In this document: piece after piece, positions 50,961-63,088 of the stretch
Layout of the letters: each line of letters begins with the position of its first letter
How positions within the stretch are numbered: the stretch's first letter is position 1
Source: Laetmonice hystrix
Taxonomy: Eukaryota
DNA: 64,000 nt
Direction: 5' to 3'
Assembly: GCA_965235115.1 (NCBI GenBank)
Contig: OZ249436.1
Span: 27,096,001 to 27,160,000 of the forward strand
Translations under genes and position numbers: made by a program
Notes under the pieces: model-generated
Told to the model about the DNA's origin: nothing
The model's input: only the letters and a program-made list of their open reading frames with translations
Databases searched by the model: none

Positions 50961-51047
50961 TACACATTTACATGTCAACTTAATAGGGCTAATATGTGTT
51001 TTGTTAGCTTCATCAGCAAAGTCAGGCAATATGTGTCCTGCTGACCT

Positions 51048-51900
51048 ATGCAGCCGACGCTGCCTGCTATCCACAGTAAAGTGATATTGAGTAGGGACTT
51101 CTTACACAGGTATGGAATGTTACTCAGTTATACTTTAGATCATCTTTCTTTAACATTTACATTAGCAAAAATCCAATTCCCCAATCGATTAGACCCGCCC
51201 GGGTCAGAGGTATTGTGTGCAGGCCAAATTACCTTAGGTAAACCTCTATGGGAGGTCAGGAAGTTTTCTTTGAGGCTAACTAAGTGTCAGGTGTTAATAG
51301 CCAGGGCAGCAGTTATGATGACAGATGGATAGGTTCCAATTCGCCTAATTATCTATTTCCAGGGGAAAAGAACTTTAAAGAGCGGACATATTTTGGAGCC
51401 TATAAAAAAGTAGTCAATTCGAAAACTAAACAAGGTAAACAATATTTAGCATGTACATCAGACAGAGCATTCCTCACATATACCCCAGGTTGATCTATCA
51501 AAAGCTAACCTAACACCAGAACAAACGAAAGCTTTACAAGATATTTCAGCACAAAATTCGGACGCCTTTTTGAGACCAGATGGGAGACTGGGATGCACTG
51601 ATTTGGTTGAACATGAAATTGAGACAGTTCCAGTGGTTCCCACAAACCATAAACTTCCATATTGCTTGTCTCCCAAAATGAGGGATAAATTAGACAAACC
51701 GGCCCAGGAACAAATTGATCTTGGTGTATTAGAGCCATGTACATCAGGTGCATGGGCCTCGCCATCCTTTCTGATAGCAAAGGCGGATGGCAAGTCACAG
51801 GATTAGACATAAACTACCGAGGTTTAAATGCAGTTAAGTCACCGCAGTTTGTACCCATCCAAAGAATTGATGAAACATTTGATTTAGTGAGGCAAAAACA
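51048..51900 (+). pseudogene. Ty3/Gypsy pol remnant (protease C-terminus to RT N-terminus), frameshifted and truncated
   Basis: Contains VILSRDFL (protease ILGxDFL-like), then DLSKANLTPEQ...LGCTDLVEHEIET...PYCLSP...GVLEPCTSGAWASPSFLIAKADGK. After a frameshift it reads INYRGLNAV...VPIQRIDETFD. No YxDD, RNase H or integrase is seen. Confidence 0.9.
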
Positions 51901-52335
51901 CATGCTTGGCCGGTAAACAAACGCACATGATCAAATTACGTCTTCTGATTGGTTACGAGTGAAAGACGAATCACTTCCCGTGCAAAACAATTCCGCGAAC
52001 AAGCTGCTAATTCTGATCATTTACCTAATGGGGCCTAACCCCGATATCATGTGAGTTCATGGTTGAGCAGCGGTGGTATGTACATACATATAAATGTATA
52101 TTTGCATTTATCCCGACACTCATGCGTAAACCAACAGGCATTTACAATATATCTATTAGAAACACATGTCAAAGACACAAAAGATGTTTTCCACTGGTCA
52201 CAAGCTAATACAGTGGCATCACAGGACACTAAGACAAGGCATAGACCGAGGTGAACTGTAAATAATACGTTGGTAGTCATGCCTAATCAAAATTACATGC
52301 GATTGGACGGGAGAGGTGGAATTAACGAAAAAGTT

Positions 52336-54320
52336 TTAGTCTTTCATCTGGCGCCTAAGATACATTATGATTTTGCCGTGTTTGTTTTGACCTTTGAAGC
52401 AGTGTTTTGAGTTCAGTTGACCAGAGACTGCATGCACCGCCCCACTTCCAATCTCGAGTAGCCTCGACCATAGTGCGGTCGCCGGTTATGCAAAAGTTCT
52501 CTGTGCTGTGAAAACTTGGCATTGTTAGCGTCACCCATGACCCTCTCCTCGATTCTTGGCCACTCTGATGTTGATGTTATTTTGATTTTGTTCCCCAGTT
52601 GTTTGATTTTTTTTTCATTTTGTGCCTTTTCAGCTTTCTTACTTTGAAAATACTGTTCGGTTGAATTCCACTTACGGCCGTCGATTATAATGTCACATGG
52701 ATAGAAATTACTTAAGGGGAGTGTTCTGAGGCAAATCCTACATGATTCTCTGACACTTTGGGGGTTCTGGCGGCAGATAGTAAAAATTTCGGTGGCAATA
52801 GTTCAAGGTCTTCATACTTGTAGGTTTGGTTATTGAGGTGTAACATGTCAACAACAACCTTTGCAGAGATGGGGGCTCTATGTGCCTCGCATACGTAGAG
52901 CTCTACTGATCTTAGCGCCGCTCTCTCCATTTTGATTTGCGCGGGTAAATCCTCATTTATATATATCTTAGTGGTTGTGTCCCGCAGTCTTACAGGTTAT
53001 TCTTACGAATCTAGCTAGTATTGGACGTGGTCGGCTTGACTACTTACTCCCATACCTGTGGCACTTGTCCACTTCTGTACTTTCAATGGGCAATTCTAGC
53101 TTCTCTCGTATTAGTTGTAGGACGAGTCGCTTGGTGTTTTCCCCCCGATTTTCGGGCAGGCCTTCAATAACAAGGTTATGTTTTCTGCTATGTGTCTCTA
53201 GCTGGAGAATTTTTTTGTTTGCTTCCTGTAGCTCCTTCATGATTTTAACATTGTTCGCCCTTTCCATGGTTAACTTGTTTGTGAGTTCGTCCAGTAAACT
53301 GACACGTGTGTCTTCAATGTCGCTTTCCAGCCTCACTTTAAAAACAAATTGGTTAAAACAACCAAGATCCTGGTTAAAATCAACCAATCTTCTGCATGGA
53401 TGTGTCCAATCGATCTCGTGGTCACAATAACCAATCCAACCGTTACCACAACCATTATTTTGGTTAATATGCTAGTATGTAACCAATGTTTTGGTTGAAA
53501 CAACCAATCCAGATTGGTTGAATTAATAACCAATTAAACCAAGAAACTTAATTGTTCACTGCATTTATACAATTATGATAAACGAGAAACAAATATCTGG
53601 CTTTTTTAGTTTAGATTCGCATGGCCTTATGATTTCAGACAGGTCCATTCAAAGAAAATTCAAACATCTGTAACCTAAGATGCTACTCTGCATGATAATG
53701 TCGACTACTTTTACCAAGGAGTTAATAATTATGTTCTCTAGCGTCCAAAGATGGTGTTTTCATCAGCAATGTCAACAAATCCTACTTAATTAGGCCCTGG
53801 TTTGACATAACACTCTACTCACTATAACAAAGACTCCTCATATTATTGTTCATTTATGCCCACGGTTTCATTAGCCGACTCTCACAGGTATAAGACACTT
53901 CGGGGTATAGACAAAGAAATGGGCAGGTGAGAGTCATCATGTGACCACCGTGCCGGTTGTCCAGTAACCACATTGGTTGTTAATCGCCAATAAACATATT
54001 GGTTGTAACTAAATTGGTGGTTAAATTAACCAATTTAGGCTCAATCAATTAGATTGGTTACCCAATAACCAACGTATTGGTTGTGATTTAAGCAAATTTA
54101 ACTAATTTAGGCTAAACCAATGAGATTGGTAGTTATTTCAACCAATCTGTTTTTAGTGTGTAGTTCTCAATTCTCATTACTTCAATGTTTTCCGGCGAAC
54201 ATGATTGATAGTCTCTTTGCGTCCTGAGTAAGGTCTTACAGCTTAGAGTAAATCATATCTAGGTTTACCTGTTGCCTTGTTTGGTGTGCCATTGTTGACG
54301 TTAGCAACCTCGGCCATATT
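52336..54320 (-). pseudogene. Decayed non-LTR retrotransposon ORF1-like protein (coiled coil + RRM) with C-terminal NADAR/YbiA-like domain; interrupted by a MITE
   Basis: ORF1 part: KILQLETHSRKHNLVIEGLPENRGEN...VDKCHRYG...RPRPILARF...IYINEDLP. Manual translation across frameshifts then gives HSPLSNFYPCDIIIDGRKWNSTEQYFQSKKA...KIKQLGNKI...W...VMGDANNAKFSQH...TGDRTMVEATRDWKWG...FKGQNKHGKIIMYLR, with a stop at 52336-52338. The N-terminal limit is approximate. Confidence 0.85.
53334..54160. mobile_element. Non-autonomous TIR DNA transposon (MITE, CAC-ended, possibly CACTA/EnSpm-type) inserted in the ORF1
   Basis: Left end CACTTTAAAAACAAATTGGTTAAAA vs reverse-complemented right end CACACTAAAAACAGATTGGTTGAAA. 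Many subterminal AACCAA/TTGGTT motifs at both ends. No clean TSD seen. Confidence 0.8.
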
Positions 54321-54585
54321 GGTGGTGTCGTCGGGTTGTGTTATGGTGACCTCTTGGAAAACCTGCTTGTTTTTGTCCTTGGCTTTATCGGCTTTCCTAT
54401 TTGGCATGCCTTCCGTTTCTTGGTATCTTTGGACAACAGTAGGTGTACTTTAGAACGTAAAATCCCGCTTTTTCCTTGATATTTCCTCCTTCCGTCTCCC
54501 GCCACGCAACACACGTGTTTCGTAATCAACCCCTATTAAATTACTCCGCGTGTCCTCTGCTATGCCGCGCTTCCTCGTCTAGCGT

Positions 54586-54600
54586 GCCGCCATCTAGTGG
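54586..54600 (-). promoter_or_regulatory. CCACTAGATGGCGGC: CTCF-like and YY1-like (AGATGGCG) motif at the putative 5' end of the ORF1 element
   Basis: Motif match only. It sits at the edge of a GC/CpG-rich stretch upstream of the ORF1, as in L1-type 5' ends. Confidence 0.3.
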
Positions 54601-55269
54601 ATTTTATTAACATCAAACTACTGTCATACTGTAACATCCTTCCTTTTTTCTATACATATTCTAATTATTTTTTAGGAGGTTCTGGGACGGAGGAATCGGT
54701 TACTAGAAGAAAAAGAGTGATTGGCTCGCTCCCTCATTTGCACAAATTAAATATGGCCGTCATGTTAGCCAGAACTCGAGCTATTCTGGCTATATCTTCA
54801 CGTCAAAATGAGTTTTACTCATTAAAAAAAAGCTCATAAATGTGCCTTGAAATTCCGTCACGTTACAGTTGCTGTAATTCCGTCACACTAATGACAGATC
54901 GCATTAAAAACCAGAGTTATAGGCTTCTATAGGCATATGATAGGCTTCTATAGGTATATAGATTTATGATTCTATAGAATTTATTTTTAAAATTCATATC
55001 ACTGTAACGAGGCCTAATCGCAGGAAACAAGCTGTAGGCCTATTGAACATGTGGAACAAAGGTCAACTAACGCAATGGCAACGTAAGTGATATAAAAAGT
55101 AGGCTAAATTATGAGCCGGAACAGGCAGAAAGTGAAGGCTGATAACGAATTGGCCGAACAAATATAGGCTATAGTCTACTTCCATACCACCGTCATATGT
55201 GAAAATCTATGAGGTGATTTCAAGACGACAGAGTTACTTGGCCTAAAAGCTGGGAGGGTGTTCCATTTA

Positions 55270-58223: not shown

Positions 58224-60270
58224 CCACGTGACTTTGAAGTTTGTCAATTTTGACTTTTTTTTCTAAAACTGCTTCAGTCATATAGGAATCATGTATTTGG
58301 TCACTAGATATGTGCTGCTATTGACGATTGATCACTTTGCATATTTCTTTTCATAAATTTACCAATATATTTTTATTTATGATGAAATAATGTAATCTGA
58401 CGTAGACAGGCTCTACCTTGAAACGTGTTTAAGATAGCCATATACAAATACAAAAATTACTAAGTGTATAGATTCAGGTATACCACTGACTGTTTAGTTC
58501 TTGTTTTGGAAAGGTAATATGGCCAGAATTGTAGGTTTTAATAGTCTCCACAATAATATTTTTGCCGTCTGACAGTTGGCATCTCTGAATACACAGATCT
58601 CCCACTGTGCTGCAGCCGCCGGTCCCTGGCCAGGCCGGGAGAGAGTTGCGTAAGTGCTGGTGATAAGGGCCGGCGGGCGGTTGTGACTACTCCCCCCCCT
58701 CCCCCCTCCCTTCCTCCCAGTCAAGGTGGATTGGAAGAATATGTGTATTCAGAACAGACCTAACTGAATTAGCTCTATCTTTGAACTGTAGGTGTGACTG
58801 TCTAATACATGTACATGTTTTGGGGTGTCACATAGGGGAAGAGCTGAATGAAAGGATACTTTGATTGTTGCCAGTGGAGTTCAAGTGATACAACAAACTT
58901 TTGGTCAGCTGCACTTGGTTTCAGCCTGAGCCAACAGTCTGGTGTGGATGACATTTGCACCCATCTTTTTGCGTGAAACTGCCCTGACATGGTGCTTTAT
59001 GATATCTGTGATATTTTTCATGATGCCCGTAGGCCTAACAGGAATCTATCTAATCCATAAGGACTATAATATTTCATAATGTCAAAGGGATACTTAGTAA
59101 CTTCCATGTGGATGAAAATGGCCCTATTGTTAGGTCAATAATTAAATGAGAGAAAAATATTGGTAATGATCGAAAACCATTGGGGAAATGGGACCTACCT
59201 GTATTGCTTGGCAATAAGAATTTCTGGATTTAATTAGTATTTACGATTATAACGTTTCCTTCCACAATGATTAATATCAAAATAGGTAGGTATACCGTGC
59301 AGTAGACCTCTATGATCCCTTCGACATGTCAGGGGCGGATCCCCACTCTTTCTTTTTGAAGAATTGACAAAAATTAGTGTTAGGCTAGGTCCATATACAG
59401 CCGCGTGTCTACGATTTTCAGCAGGGCGGTCTCGGGAATTTTTTTTTTAATTAGAAGCTCTTAGATGCGATTTTTCCTCCTTTTGTGGACCCTTTTAGTG
59501 CATTATACCTTGTGGATTCATCACTCAACCAGTTTAATCGTTTGATGTTGTTCCATTGAATCTAAGGGGAAAAGAATCCATGCTCTGGAAGAGCATGGGG
59601 GGGGGGGGGGTCCGACCCCCGACCCCTGCTGACATGCGCCTGAAATACTTTGAGAAACTTCACATCTAGCTCCAGAAATAACGTTCTTTGACCATCTAAA
59701 TTTAAGTAGCCGCCCCCCACCATGTTCGCCTCACACCTTTGGTGCCCTTCCTTTCTTGCAGTACTATTGAACAGGAATAGGAAATCATACATTGTATGCT
59801 CTTTCAATTGACACCAAGTTTTATTATATACCGTATCATATGATGTCATAATGATGCCATTGACATCTTCCAAGGCTTCTAAGTAATAAACCATTCAAGA
59901 TAGAGCCATGGTTACAAACACGAATAGGAAGTCATATATGATCTTTCGCTTGACATTTTTTACATGACGTGTCTCATGACATCATAAGGTGTCATAGATA
60001 TTTTTCTCAGGGCAATGACTTGTAAATGGTTGAGGTTGGGACTATAGTTAATATTAAACACTAATAGGAAGTACATGCTCTTTCATTTGAGACCAAGATT
60101 TATGTAGCCTGACGTGCCACCTCATAATTACGTCATTTACCTCATTTAAAGCTTGTAAGTCATTAACCACGCAAGATTGAGACATATTGTTTACCCACTC
60201 AGAACGTGTCATATATGACGTGACTCCCCGGGGATGGGATCAATTGTGGTATCGCCACAACGTGTCTAGT
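58224..60270 (+). mobile_element. Helentron/HINE (DINE-1-like) non-autonomous element, tandem copy 1, 5'-truncated
   Basis: Matches copy 2 from CCACGTGACTTTGAAG onward. Ends with subTIR GGGGATGGGAT (60230-60240), hairpin TTGTGG-TATCG-CCACAA and CTAGT. Confidence 0.75.
59398..59642. mobile_element. Possible small MITE nested in the HINE body (second copy at 61893-62158)
   Basis: CAGCCGCGTGTC vs reverse-complemented right end CAGGCGCATGTC (10/12 match), with a subterminal poly-G. No TSD seen. Confidence 0.35.
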
Positions 60271-62776
60271 TATTATTTTTGGCGATGTAGTTGTAGTAGT
60301 TGTAGTAGTAAACAGTACCTCTATCTCAGTCATTTTTCAAGATATCTCAACCAGACTTGGTACATATCTTGACCATGACACGGTCTGGTAGGACAACGAG
60401 TTATGACCTGATAGGACGTCACGTCATGACGTCATGACGTGAAATGTGGTTTTGCACGTTGAGGCCAATTTTTATGCTCATATTAGGATTTTTTAAAACC
60501 CTTTATGCCATTGTAATCGGACAAGGGTGCTGCCTCAATCTGACACTTGATTTGACCTTTGACCTTTGACCTTGGGGAGAACTGGGCCCTTGGTCACAAA
60601 TCGGTTAAATCGCTACTCCTTCTTCATTTTGTGGAAAAACTTGTCAATGTTGGGCAGATACACTCTCTAACGAAAGCTCCACAAGGTGATCGTTGGGATT
60701 TAGCGATTTGACCTATTTTCGCCGAACCACGTGACTTTGAAGTTTGTCAATCTTGACATTTTTTTCTAAAACTGCTTTAGTCATGTAGGAATCGTGTATT
60801 TGGTCACTAGATATGTGCTGCTATTGACGATTGATCACTTTGCATATTTCTTTTCATAAATTTACCAATATATTTTTATTTATGATGAAATATGTAATCT
60901 GACTGTTGACAGGCTCTACCTTGAAACGTGTTTAAGATAGCCATATACAAATACAACTATTACAAAGTGTATAGATTCAGGTATACCACTGATTGTTTAG
61001 TTCGTTTTTTGGAAAGGTAATATGGCCAGAATTGTAGGTTTTAATAGTCTCCACAATAATATTTTTGCCGTCTGACAGTTGGCATCTCTGAATACACAGA
61101 TCTCCCACTGTGCTGCAGCCGCCGGTCCCTGGCCAGGCCGGGAGAGAGTTACGTAAGTGCTGGTGATAAGGGCAGGGCGGGCGGTTGTGACTACTCCCCC
61201 CCCCCTCCCTTCCTCCCAGTCAAGGTGGATTGGAAGAATATGTGTATTCAGAACAGACCTAACTGAATTAGCTCTATCTTTGAACTGTAAGTGTGACTGT
61301 CTAATACATGTACATGTTTTGGGGTCTCACATAGGGGAAGAGCTGAATAAAAGGATACTTTGATTGTTGGCAGTGGAGTTCAAGTGATACAACAAACTTT
61401 TGGTCAGCTGCACTCGGTTTCAGCCTGAGCCAACAGTCTGGTGTGGATGACATTTGCACCCATTTTTCTTGCGTGAAACTGCCCTGACATGGTGCTTTAT
61501 GATATCTGTGATATTTTTCATGATGCCCGTAACAGGAATCTATCTAATCCATAAGGACTATAATATTTCATAATGTCAAAGGGATACTTAGTAACTTCCA
61601 TGTGGATGAAAATGGCCCTATTGTTAGGTCAATAATTAAATGAGAGAAAAATATTGGTAATGATCGAAAACCATTGGGGAAATGGGACCTACCTGTATTG
61701 CTTGGCAATAAGAATTTCTGGATTTAATTAGTATTTACGATTATAACGTTTCCTTCCACAATGATTAATATCAAAATAGGTAGGTATACCGTGCAGTAGA
61801 CCTCTATGATCCCTTTCGACATGTCAGGGGCGGATCCCCACTCTTTCTTTTTGAAGAATTGACAAAAATTAGTGTTAGGCTAGGTCCATATACAGCCGCG
61901 TGTCTAGGATTTTCAGCAGGGCGGTCTCGGGAATTTTTTTTTAAATTAGAAGCTCTTAGATGCGATTTTTCCTTCTTTTGTGGACCCTTTTATTGCATTA
62001 TACCTTGTGGATTCATCACTCAACCAGTTTAAAATAGGCAGAATGGGTTGCACCTGTTCGTTTGATGTTGTTCCGTTGACTCTAAGGGGAAAAGAATCCA
62101 CGCTCTGGGGGAGCATGGGGGGGGGGTCCGACCCCCGACCCCTGCTGACATGCGCCTGAAATACTTTGAGAAACTTCACATCTAGCTCCAGAAATAACAT
62201 TCTTTGACCATCTAAATTTAAGTCGCCGCCCCCCACCATGTTCGCCTCACACCTTTGGCGCCCTTCCTTTCTTGCAGTACTATTGAACAGGAATATGAAA
62301 TCATACATTGTATGCTCTTTTAATTGACACCAAGATTTATTATATACCGTATCATATGATGTCATAATGATGCCATTGACATCTTCCAAGGCTTCTTAGT
62401 AATAAACCATTCAAGATAGAGCCATGGTTACAAACACGAATAGGAAGTCATATATGATCTTTCGCTTGACATTTATTACATGACGTGTCTCATGGTGTCA
62501 TAGATATTTTTCTCAGGGCAATGACTTGTAAATGGTTGAGGTTGGAACTATAGTTAATATTAAACACTAATAGGAAGTACATGCTCTTTCATTTGAGACC
62601 AAGATTTGTGTAGCCTGACGTGCCACCTCATAATTACGTCATTTACCTCATTTAAAGCTTGTAAGTCATTAACCTCGCAAGATTGAGCCATATTGTTCAC
62701 CCACTCAGAACGTGTCATATATGACGTGACTCCCCGGGGATGGGATCAATTGTGGTATCGCCACAACGTGTCTAGT
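60271..62776 (+). mobile_element. HINE-like element, tandem copy 2 (2506 bp; lacks the 5' hairpin module)
   Basis: Starts TATTATTTTTTGGCGATGTAGTTGTAG directly after the CTAGT of copy 1 and has the same 3' terminus at 62736-62776. Confidence 0.8.
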
Positions 62777-63037
62777 TATCCCATCCCCTACGGAGGGGAT
62801 GGGATTTAGAAATTGTGTGGTTTCGTCTTCTGTATTATTATCCCATCCCCTACGGAGGGGATGGGATTTTGAAATTGTGTGGTTTCGTCTTCGGTATTAT
62901 TATTATTATCCCATCCCCTACGGAGGGGATGGGATTTAGAAATTGTGTGGTTTCGTCTTCTGTATTATTATTATTATCCCATCCCCTACGGAGGGGATGG
63001 GATTTAGAAATTGTGTGGTTTCGTCTTCTGTATTATT
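62777..63037. repeat. Four tandem copies of the 62-68-bp hairpin head module
   Basis: Hairpins start at 62778, 62840, 62908 and 62976; length differences come from the (TAT)n linker. Confidence 0.95.
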
Positions 63038-63052
63038 TTTGGCGTCGTAGTT

Positions 63053-63088
<36 letters not shown>
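63053..63088. repeat. (GTA)12 microsatellite
   Basis: Direct read; a short degenerate equivalent lies at ~60287-60310 in copy 2. Confidence 0.95.

Follow-up and report, generated by a model that had tools for sequence, protein, structure and literature searches.

How a NADAR domain came to stand at the end of a broken retrotransposon gene, and what such a domain might do for the element that carries it, are the questions raised by a locus in the genome of Laetmonice hystrix. NADARs reverse base-linked ADP-ribosylation, and the original prediction, made from the letters of a 64,000-nt stretch of this genome (contig OZ249436.1, positions 27,096,001 to 27,160,000; henceforth the window), held that the minus strand at 52336-53333 encodes the ORF1 protein of a LINE fused to a domain of this family. 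Six-frame translation recovers all the quoted motifs there, spread over three frames: SRKHNLVIEG from 53189, HRYG at 53060, IYINEDLP from 52966 and LSNFYPC from 52715, as well as STEQYFQSKKA, TGDRTMVEA and GQNKHG, with the ORF1 stop codon at 52338-52336. The boundaries had to be revised: ORF1 is not confined to 52336-53333 but starts at an ATG at 54407, upstream of a MITE-like insertion, and the NADAR part, said to be missed by the list of open reading frames, is partly present in the stop-to-stop list (52413-52802). From the 5' end of the element, the layout is as follows:

54408-54651, minus strand: stretch common to other copies, probably the 5' UTR; alignments to L051, L053, L054, L065 and L068 stop at 54649-54651
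54172-54407, minus strand: 5' part of ORF1, broken, with the ATG at 54407; the N-terminus resembles that of the intact L067 ORF1 by eye
53334-54160, no strand assigned: MITE-like insertion splitting ORF1, with 29-nt terminal inverted repeats (83% complementary); missing from L061
53190-53333, minus strand: ORF1 coiled coil, aligning to L067 from residue 92; the profile matches L1 ORF1p (2ykp)
52943-53189, minus strand: ORF1 RRM, broken by an in-frame stop at 53042-53040 and by a ~27-nt deletion with a frame change near 52991
52739-52942, minus strand: L1-type CTD and a short linker
52336-52738, minus strand: NADAR domain (YbiA-type) up to the ORF1 stop, broken; Pfam PF08719, E=3.9e-09
52040-52204, minus strand: remnant of the ORF2 5' end, truncated at 52040; start of the L059 ORF2, 68.5% identity over 54 aa, E=5.7e-16
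51465-51803, plus strand: fragment of a Gypsy-type Pol (start of RT), outside the LINE; 34% identity to the L129 Pol, E=4e-12

The region between the RRM and the NADAR domain, previously described as a ~70-aa linker, turned out to be a folded L1-type CTD, as indicated by the match of the ORF1 profile to 2ykp, by the Foldseek match to 2yko and by the predicted model. That the copy is dead was borne out by the lesions in the RRM and by further indels in the NADAR domain, located near 52719, 52608 (36-37 nt lost), 52488 and 52401. The domain nonetheless still shows the equivalents of E43 (52658), K50 (52637), E125 (52465), D130 and W133 of the Phytophthora NADAR 8BAU, and the piece 52416-52712 alone scores 37.4 bits against PF08719 (cut-off 35.1). 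The RRM pieces taken alone gave no relevant Pfam match, and the RRM is therefore identified through the intact relative L067, whose ORF1 aligns to 53294-52342 in a tblastn search (E=3.7e-63), and through the ORF1 profile match. In copy L061, the 54172-54407 stretch runs straight into the match at 53330-52995, and a search with 53330-54700 yielded many dispersed matches to the MITE part (617 candidates, 40 scored). L051, L053, L054, L065 and L068 share additional upstream sequence that is absent from the window, so that 54651 may not be the true 5' end. Near this end, the minus strand at 54585-54598 carries a CCACTAGATGGCG motif, which we take to resemble the CTCF core site. Downstream, the ORF2 of L059 goes on into endonuclease and CR1-type RT motifs, and it is via L059 (80% DNA identity) that the family of the window copy is tied to a CR1-type ORF2. 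The Gypsy-type fragment sits just past the point at 52040 where the LINE is cut off, on the opposite strand. These observations confirm that the window copy preserves the dead ORF1 of a LINE, likely of the CR1 group, in which coiled coil, RRM, CTD and NADAR follow one another.

Four other places in the 627-Mb genome match the window copy at 98-99% identity, and the two of them that were compared in detail have most of their breaks in common with it; since these breaks are shared and all copies extend into the same flanks, the sister copies look like duplications of a copy that was already dead. The assemblage at 50990-54651, in which the dead LINE is joined by the MITE and the Gypsy fragment, recurs at 96-99% identity on contigs C1 (the contig of the window), C2, C10 and C12, where it carries further nested insertions, as befits a block that was duplicated when already dead. 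Among 40 DNA matches, none was an intact copy from the subfamily of the window copy. Most of the window (1-49323) is occupied by a very large, C-rich tandem satellite with a 72-bp unit and a strong GC skew, broken up by a recurring short non-satellite piece. The intact L067 (L067:1600-7600) is inserted in the same satellite, many dead copies of the window's family (L052-L056, L063, L064) adjoin it, often toward contig ends, and L066 is located in a different tandem repeat; the association could reflect either targeting or mere tolerance. On the other side of the element, the short minus-strand open frames 59562-59894 and 61946-62395 are alike, which suggests a local duplication or a repeat, and positions 62776-63088 comprise 3.9 copies of a 68-bp tandem repeat followed by a GTA microsatellite.

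L067, the closest intact relative among the copies fetched, is 69% identical to the window at the DNA level over the part that aligns. It encodes an ORF1 of 436 aa and an ORF2 open frame of 1,052 aa with endonuclease (Exo_endo_phos) and RT (RVT_1) domains. Its ORF1 scores 106.9 bits against PF08719 and matches E. coli YbiA (3e-18), a Phytophthora NADAR (4e-11) and, weakly, human L1 ORF1p (0.007), while a profile built from 43 intact ORF1s matches L1 ORF1p 2ykp over positions 2-174 with E=9e-14; Pfam Transposase_22 gave no match to these ORF1s. In the AlphaFold model of L067 ORF1 (pLDDT 89), residues 70-127 form a long helix and the CTD region is folded. Foldseek of this predicted model retrieved 8BAU (E=1.4e-10) and 2B3W (E=4.1e-10), with target TM of 0.72-0.74, and human L1 ORF1p 2YKO (E=1.2e-07). 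The predicted NADAR domain thus has the YbiA fold, and the ORF1 is of type II (L1-type), with a coiled coil, a single RRM and a CTD homologous to 2YKO, which by homology would make its product an RNA-binding trimer. The hallmarks of a LINE are present as well: in L067, which is flanked by a possible 5-nt target-site duplication, ORF1 is followed by ORF2 with APE endonuclease and RT, and L066, a 5'-truncated twin of L067, possesses an AATAAA signal and a poly(A) tail; the window retains the ORF2 stub only.

The window copy is a patchwork of insertions, which by itself would favor the view that ORF1 and NADAR became neighbors by chance or by nested insertion, or that NADAR is a neutral passenger. 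A search of the genome with PF08719 yielded 741 candidates, of which 150 were scored, all above the cut-off, and 62 of these 150 loci, chosen for long open frames and distinct scores, were examined. RRM-CTD and a full NADAR domain lie within one ORF in 55 of these 62, mostly upstream of an endonuclease-RT ORF2; five more are broken or partial and two are of the Gypsy type. At 80% NADAR identity, the 55 fusions form 44 clusters. The reverse search with RRM-CTD gave 561 candidates, and NADAR follows directly in 17 of 20 cases hand-picked from 150 matches; the other three comprise a copy that stops just past the CTD, a copy with a deletion reaching into ORF2 and a copy that ends with no NADAR. 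Outside this genome, the same domain order was found in 146 of the top 150 representatives (clustered at 50%), with a median identity of 36% to the Laetmonice ORF1s. The presence of one intact ORF at 55 of 62 loci, the combination of saturated synonymous sites with low dN (see below) and the same order in 146 of 150 outside representatives led us to reject an artefact or a nested insertion as the source of the fusion, and we consider chance or neutral passage extremely improbable. The original prediction had named the lack of a NADAR profile match and unlinked ORF1 and NADAR sequences elsewhere as evidence against it; both were looked for, and neither was the case. One continuous ancestral ORF, as it had supposed, is represented by the intact one-ORF copies upstream of ORF2, and the fusion is corroborated by the PF08719 match above the cut-off and by the resemblance of L067 to both YbiA and L1 ORF1p in sequence and predicted fold. 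In the Laetmonice genome, ORF1s of this lineage normally carry the NADAR module.

Among the outside proteins, every member of the ESM Atlas clusters of 415-489 aa carries NADAR, and the few labelled members include Annelida. A Paralvinella protein shows, by eye, a CTD-like remnant and is placed by the NADAR tree on the LINE side, while the Amphiura protein P0195 was rejected as a relative, for it groups with stand-alone NADARs. Prokaryotic relatives bearing an organism name were sought from one protein, and none was confirmed. P0040, P0185, P0194 and P0199 combine the ORF1 CTD with NADAR under the JGI name 'ribA/ribD-fused uncharacterized protein', and are probably mis-named LINE ORF1s.

Conservation of the catalytic residues and selection had both been proposed as checks on the domain. 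The key catalytic residues of 8BAU are E43, K50 and E125 (PMC11543638). In our 57-row NADAR alignment, E43 and W89 are present in 57/57 rows and K or R at position 50 in 55/57, and the E125 column comprises 48 Glu, eight His (six LINEs and both Gypsy copies) and one Lys. The three residues are all standard in 46 of the 55 LINE copies; the nine others each depart at one of them, with six His and one Lys at the E125 site and two Met at K50. L067, like the window copy, has all three residues. In 146 outside representatives, E43 is found in 146, K/R50 in 137 and E125 in 143, although loci and outside proteins alike were chosen by score, which inflates these figures. The dN/dS comparison was carried out as pN/pS in 13 diverged pairs, in which the synonymous sites are saturated (close copies have too few changes): NADAR pS is 0.74-0.92 and pN 0.18-0.36, and the RRM-CTD core behaves alike, which indicates that NADAR is held as tightly as a part that a LINE needs. 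Judged by these substitution patterns, the NADAR domain is under purifying selection, and together with the retained catalytic residues this makes it likely that the ORF1 NADAR is an active enzyme. His occupies the family-defining E125 site in the LINEs L102, L104, L105, L110, L111 and L118, as in phage gp30.3 NADARs, and the His-type LINE NADARs may differ in specificity.

These departures could also be read as a sign that NADAR is now a binding or localising module (an ADP-ribose reader, an RNA-binding part or a granule-targeting device) for which catalysis is secondary; the nematode protein SNA-3, which uses NADAR domains in trans-splicing (PMC11125620), offers a precedent. However, both glutamates and the lysine hardly vary among outside representatives as distant as 36% median identity, and in phage NADARs a catalytic His is what normally occupies the E125 site (PMC11543638), so that we regard a mainly non-catalytic role as improbable.

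To find out which elements carry the module, we turned to the RTs. An RT long enough to use is present in 44 of the 55 fusion loci, and these divide into 37 CR1-type and seven L1/Tx1-type, a split with support of 100/100. We took the motif GVPQGS to mark CR1-type RTs; the class by motif is in line with zf-RVT, with the length of ORF2 and with how well human L1 ORF2p is matched, a match that is strong for L079 (E=1e-108) and weak for L067 (E=8e-09). The CR1-type ORF2 has ~1,000 aa and no zf-RVT. The features of the L1/Tx1 group, closeness to human L1 ORF2p and a C-terminal zf-RVT, are found in the minority class, e.g. in L079, where the zf-RVT is weak, and are lacking in L067 and the window's family; a Tx1 assignment of the window copy was accordingly rejected. 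In an RT tree built without named CR1 references, the RT of the window's family likely belongs to the CR1 group (Jockey superfamily: CR1, L2, Crack, Daphne).

The history of ORF1 does not follow that of the RT. On an ORF1 tree of 34 rows (LG+G4, after removal of eight near-copies and two short rows), the L1-type carriers require four changes, and their monophyly is rejected with p-AU of 2e-61, in a test whose groups were set by RT class and which was preceded by a quick RRM tree; the ORF1 module therefore moved between clades. For example, the ORF1s of L076 (CR1-type) and L079 (L1-type) are 61% identical as proteins and 64% as DNA, whereas the RTs are 26% alike. Conversely, L080 and L090 share 94.6% DNA identity over 3.3 kb of ORF2, whereas their NADARs are only 42% alike; L080 and L082 on the one hand and L090 and L101 on the other carry ORF2s with 92-95% DNA identity behind two unrelated ORF1-NADAR genes, which on these identities is a recent ORF1 swap. 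Each of the four ORF1/ORF2 arrangements occurs at at least two loci and hence is not a one-off nest. Taken together, tree and identities demonstrate exchange of the NADAR module between CR1-type and L1/Tx1-type elements. Whole-ORF1 exchange has been proposed among CR1 and L2 lineages (PMC4120745); that paper is limited to the Jockey superfamily, while the exchange described here reaches from the CR1 group into the L1 group.

NADAR is not restricted to LINEs. Two Gypsy-type Pol copies show the order protease-NADAR-RT-RNase H-integrase:

L129:3815-8794, plus strand: Gypsy-type Pol with NADAR, ~1,650 aa
L130:1255-6201, minus strand: Gypsy-type Pol with NADAR, ~1,650 aa

The two frames, each with His at the E125 site, are 96.6% identical. 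The fetched 10-kb stretches contain no LTR pair and stop short of the element ends. In an unrooted NADAR tree, 27 of 28 LINE domains and the Gypsy one are set apart from 22 stand-alone or multi-domain NADARs (96/89), L086 being the sole LINE NADAR outside the LINE side. This topology fits, rather than shows, one main acquisition of NADAR and a Gypsy capture from a LINE.

What, then, would the domain do? All NADARs tested remove ADP-ribose from guanine, and YbiA-type and sponge NADARs also remove it from cytidine, in DNA and RNA (PMC12945103, PMC11125620). We propose that ORF1p trimers would coat the element's own RNA, as L1 ORF1p does, and would thereby hold the NADAR domains beside the RNA template and the new cDNA; NADAR would cleave the N-glycosidic bond that links ADP-ribose to guanine or cytidine, and removal of the adduct would lift a block on translation or reverse transcription. 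Since ORF1p would coat the element RNA, its NADAR could act in cis, stripping ADP-ribose from G or C of RNA or cDNA, a reading to which we give an even chance. The weakest step is the source of the adducts, for which a host transferase (CARP-1-like or PARP) would be the likeliest candidate. Bivalves, cnidarians, sponges and other bilaterians possess CARP-1 homologues, which are guanine transferases (PMC12945103). In the Laetmonice genome, the PARP profile PF00644 gave 14 exon-level matches among 29 candidates, with no sign of a large expansion, and the Scabin-like profile PF22596 gave 0 candidates in a search whose control was silent too. Endogenous ADP-ribosylation of G or C in animal cells is, to our knowledge, barely documented. 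The original prediction had suggested that the element packaged NADAR in its RNP, possibly as a counter-defence against host ADP-ribosylation; the broader notion of a restriction of retrotransposons in marine invertebrates through ADP-ribosylation of G or C in element RNA or cDNA, to which ORF1-NADAR would be the answer, is in our estimate tentative and clearly less probable than the action in cis.

The enzyme could instead be an active N-glycosidase of small molecules (damaged nucleotides, ADP-ribose derivatives or signals, riboflavin-type intermediates) or of RNA-end by-products, which cleans the surroundings of the RNP in a manner comparable to the dUTPases of some retroviruses. The position of the Gypsy NADAR between protease and RT is like that of an accessory enzyme, YbiA works on riboflavin intermediates, isolated NADARs may have other physiological targets, DNA excepted (PMC11543638), small-molecule targets have been proposed for many viral NADARs (PMC9503650), and processing of RNA intermediates has been suggested for the elements of PMC12477816. 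Fusion to an RNA-coating protein, on the other hand, is better suited to a nucleic-acid substrate, and modified bases within oligonucleotides are acted on by every NADAR tested (PMC12945103); we thus hold a small-molecule role to be rather unlikely. Less probable still, by our reckoning, is that ADP-ribose is indeed removed from bases but the adducts stem from genotoxins of bacteria or symbionts, or from a DNA-repair PARP at the insertion site, and not from an anti-transposon defence. Protection against actinomycete toxins has been proposed for metazoan NADARs, PARP1-made cytidine adducts are on record (both in PMC12945103), and no host pierisin-like gene was among the PF22596 results, where the control gave no match either. 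However, selection acts on the element's own copying, and retention of the domain in 44 clusters and in the Gypsy Pol suggests a steady germ-line pressure.

Action on nucleic acids in cis, the reading we prefer, has to be set against the known systems. The original prediction left aside whether the fusion had been reported; it has been, briefly, in PMC12477816, which describes a YbiA-family NADAR in Tx1 LINEs of Crassostrea gigas (Repbase families), where it is part of ORF1, and in a Gypsy Pol of Ectocarpus, and which suggests RNA processing as a role. The ORF1-NADAR fusion itself is hence not new. This was the only report linking NADAR/YbiA to retrotransposons found in a search of the openly accessible literature; in the same search, we found no prior report of the CR1-group majority carriers, the CR1-L1 exchange or the animal Gypsy case. 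The seven L1/Tx1-type elements among our 44 are probably of the same kind as the oyster Tx1, compared by description, whereas the window's family and 37 of the 44 elements have a CR1-type ORF2; the passages of PMC12477816 on the oyster elements contain no analysis of domain layout, selection, catalytic residues or swapping. The Ectocarpus Pol carries NADAR as L129 and L130 do, but its NADAR matches mostly bacteria, while the Gypsy NADAR described here comes from an animal genome, is flanked by protease and RT and belongs to the LINE side of the NADAR tree. With type II (Tnp22) ORF1p such as that of human L1 (2YKO), known also in CR1 and L2 (PMC4120745), the Laetmonice proteins share coiled coil, RRM and CTD; types IIB and IIC carry PHD (PMC4120745), and the extra domain here is a C-terminal NADAR. 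With E. coli YbiA (2B3W) and the Phytophthora NADAR (8BAU), they share the fold and the equivalents of E43, K50 and E125. Unlike YbiA and the DarT1-NADAR antitoxin, the ORF1 NADAR is fused to an RNA-binding protein and has no linked toxin gene; DarT1-linked NADARs have Asp at the E125 position, which occurs in none of our 57 rows, ORF1 NADARs having Glu, and the neighboring gene is a LINE ORF2. A parallel in life style is provided by invertebrate RNA viruses, likewise selfish RNA replicons, whose polyproteins have NADAR in place of Macro domains, a proposed counter to host ADP-ribosylation (PMC9503650), although here the carrier is a retrotransposon structural protein and not a replicase polyprotein.

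The window copy is only a fossil, but the intact natural enzymes and elements make the role of NADAR testable. They also provide clean examples of whole-ORF1 exchange, one of them recent (94.6% identity in ORF2 next to unrelated ORF1s), and LINE ORF1s may stand behind many of the 'NADAR' or 'ribA/ribD-fused' database entries that come from marine samples. That dozens of LINE lineages retain a NADAR with an intact catalytic site, and trade it across superfamilies, speaks for a pressure that acts steadily on the nucleic acids of retroelements. If the counter-defence were true, the module would have been valuable enough to be swapped repeatedly between CR1 and L1 elements and captured by a Gypsy element, and it would constitute a transposon parallel to the macrodomains of viruses.
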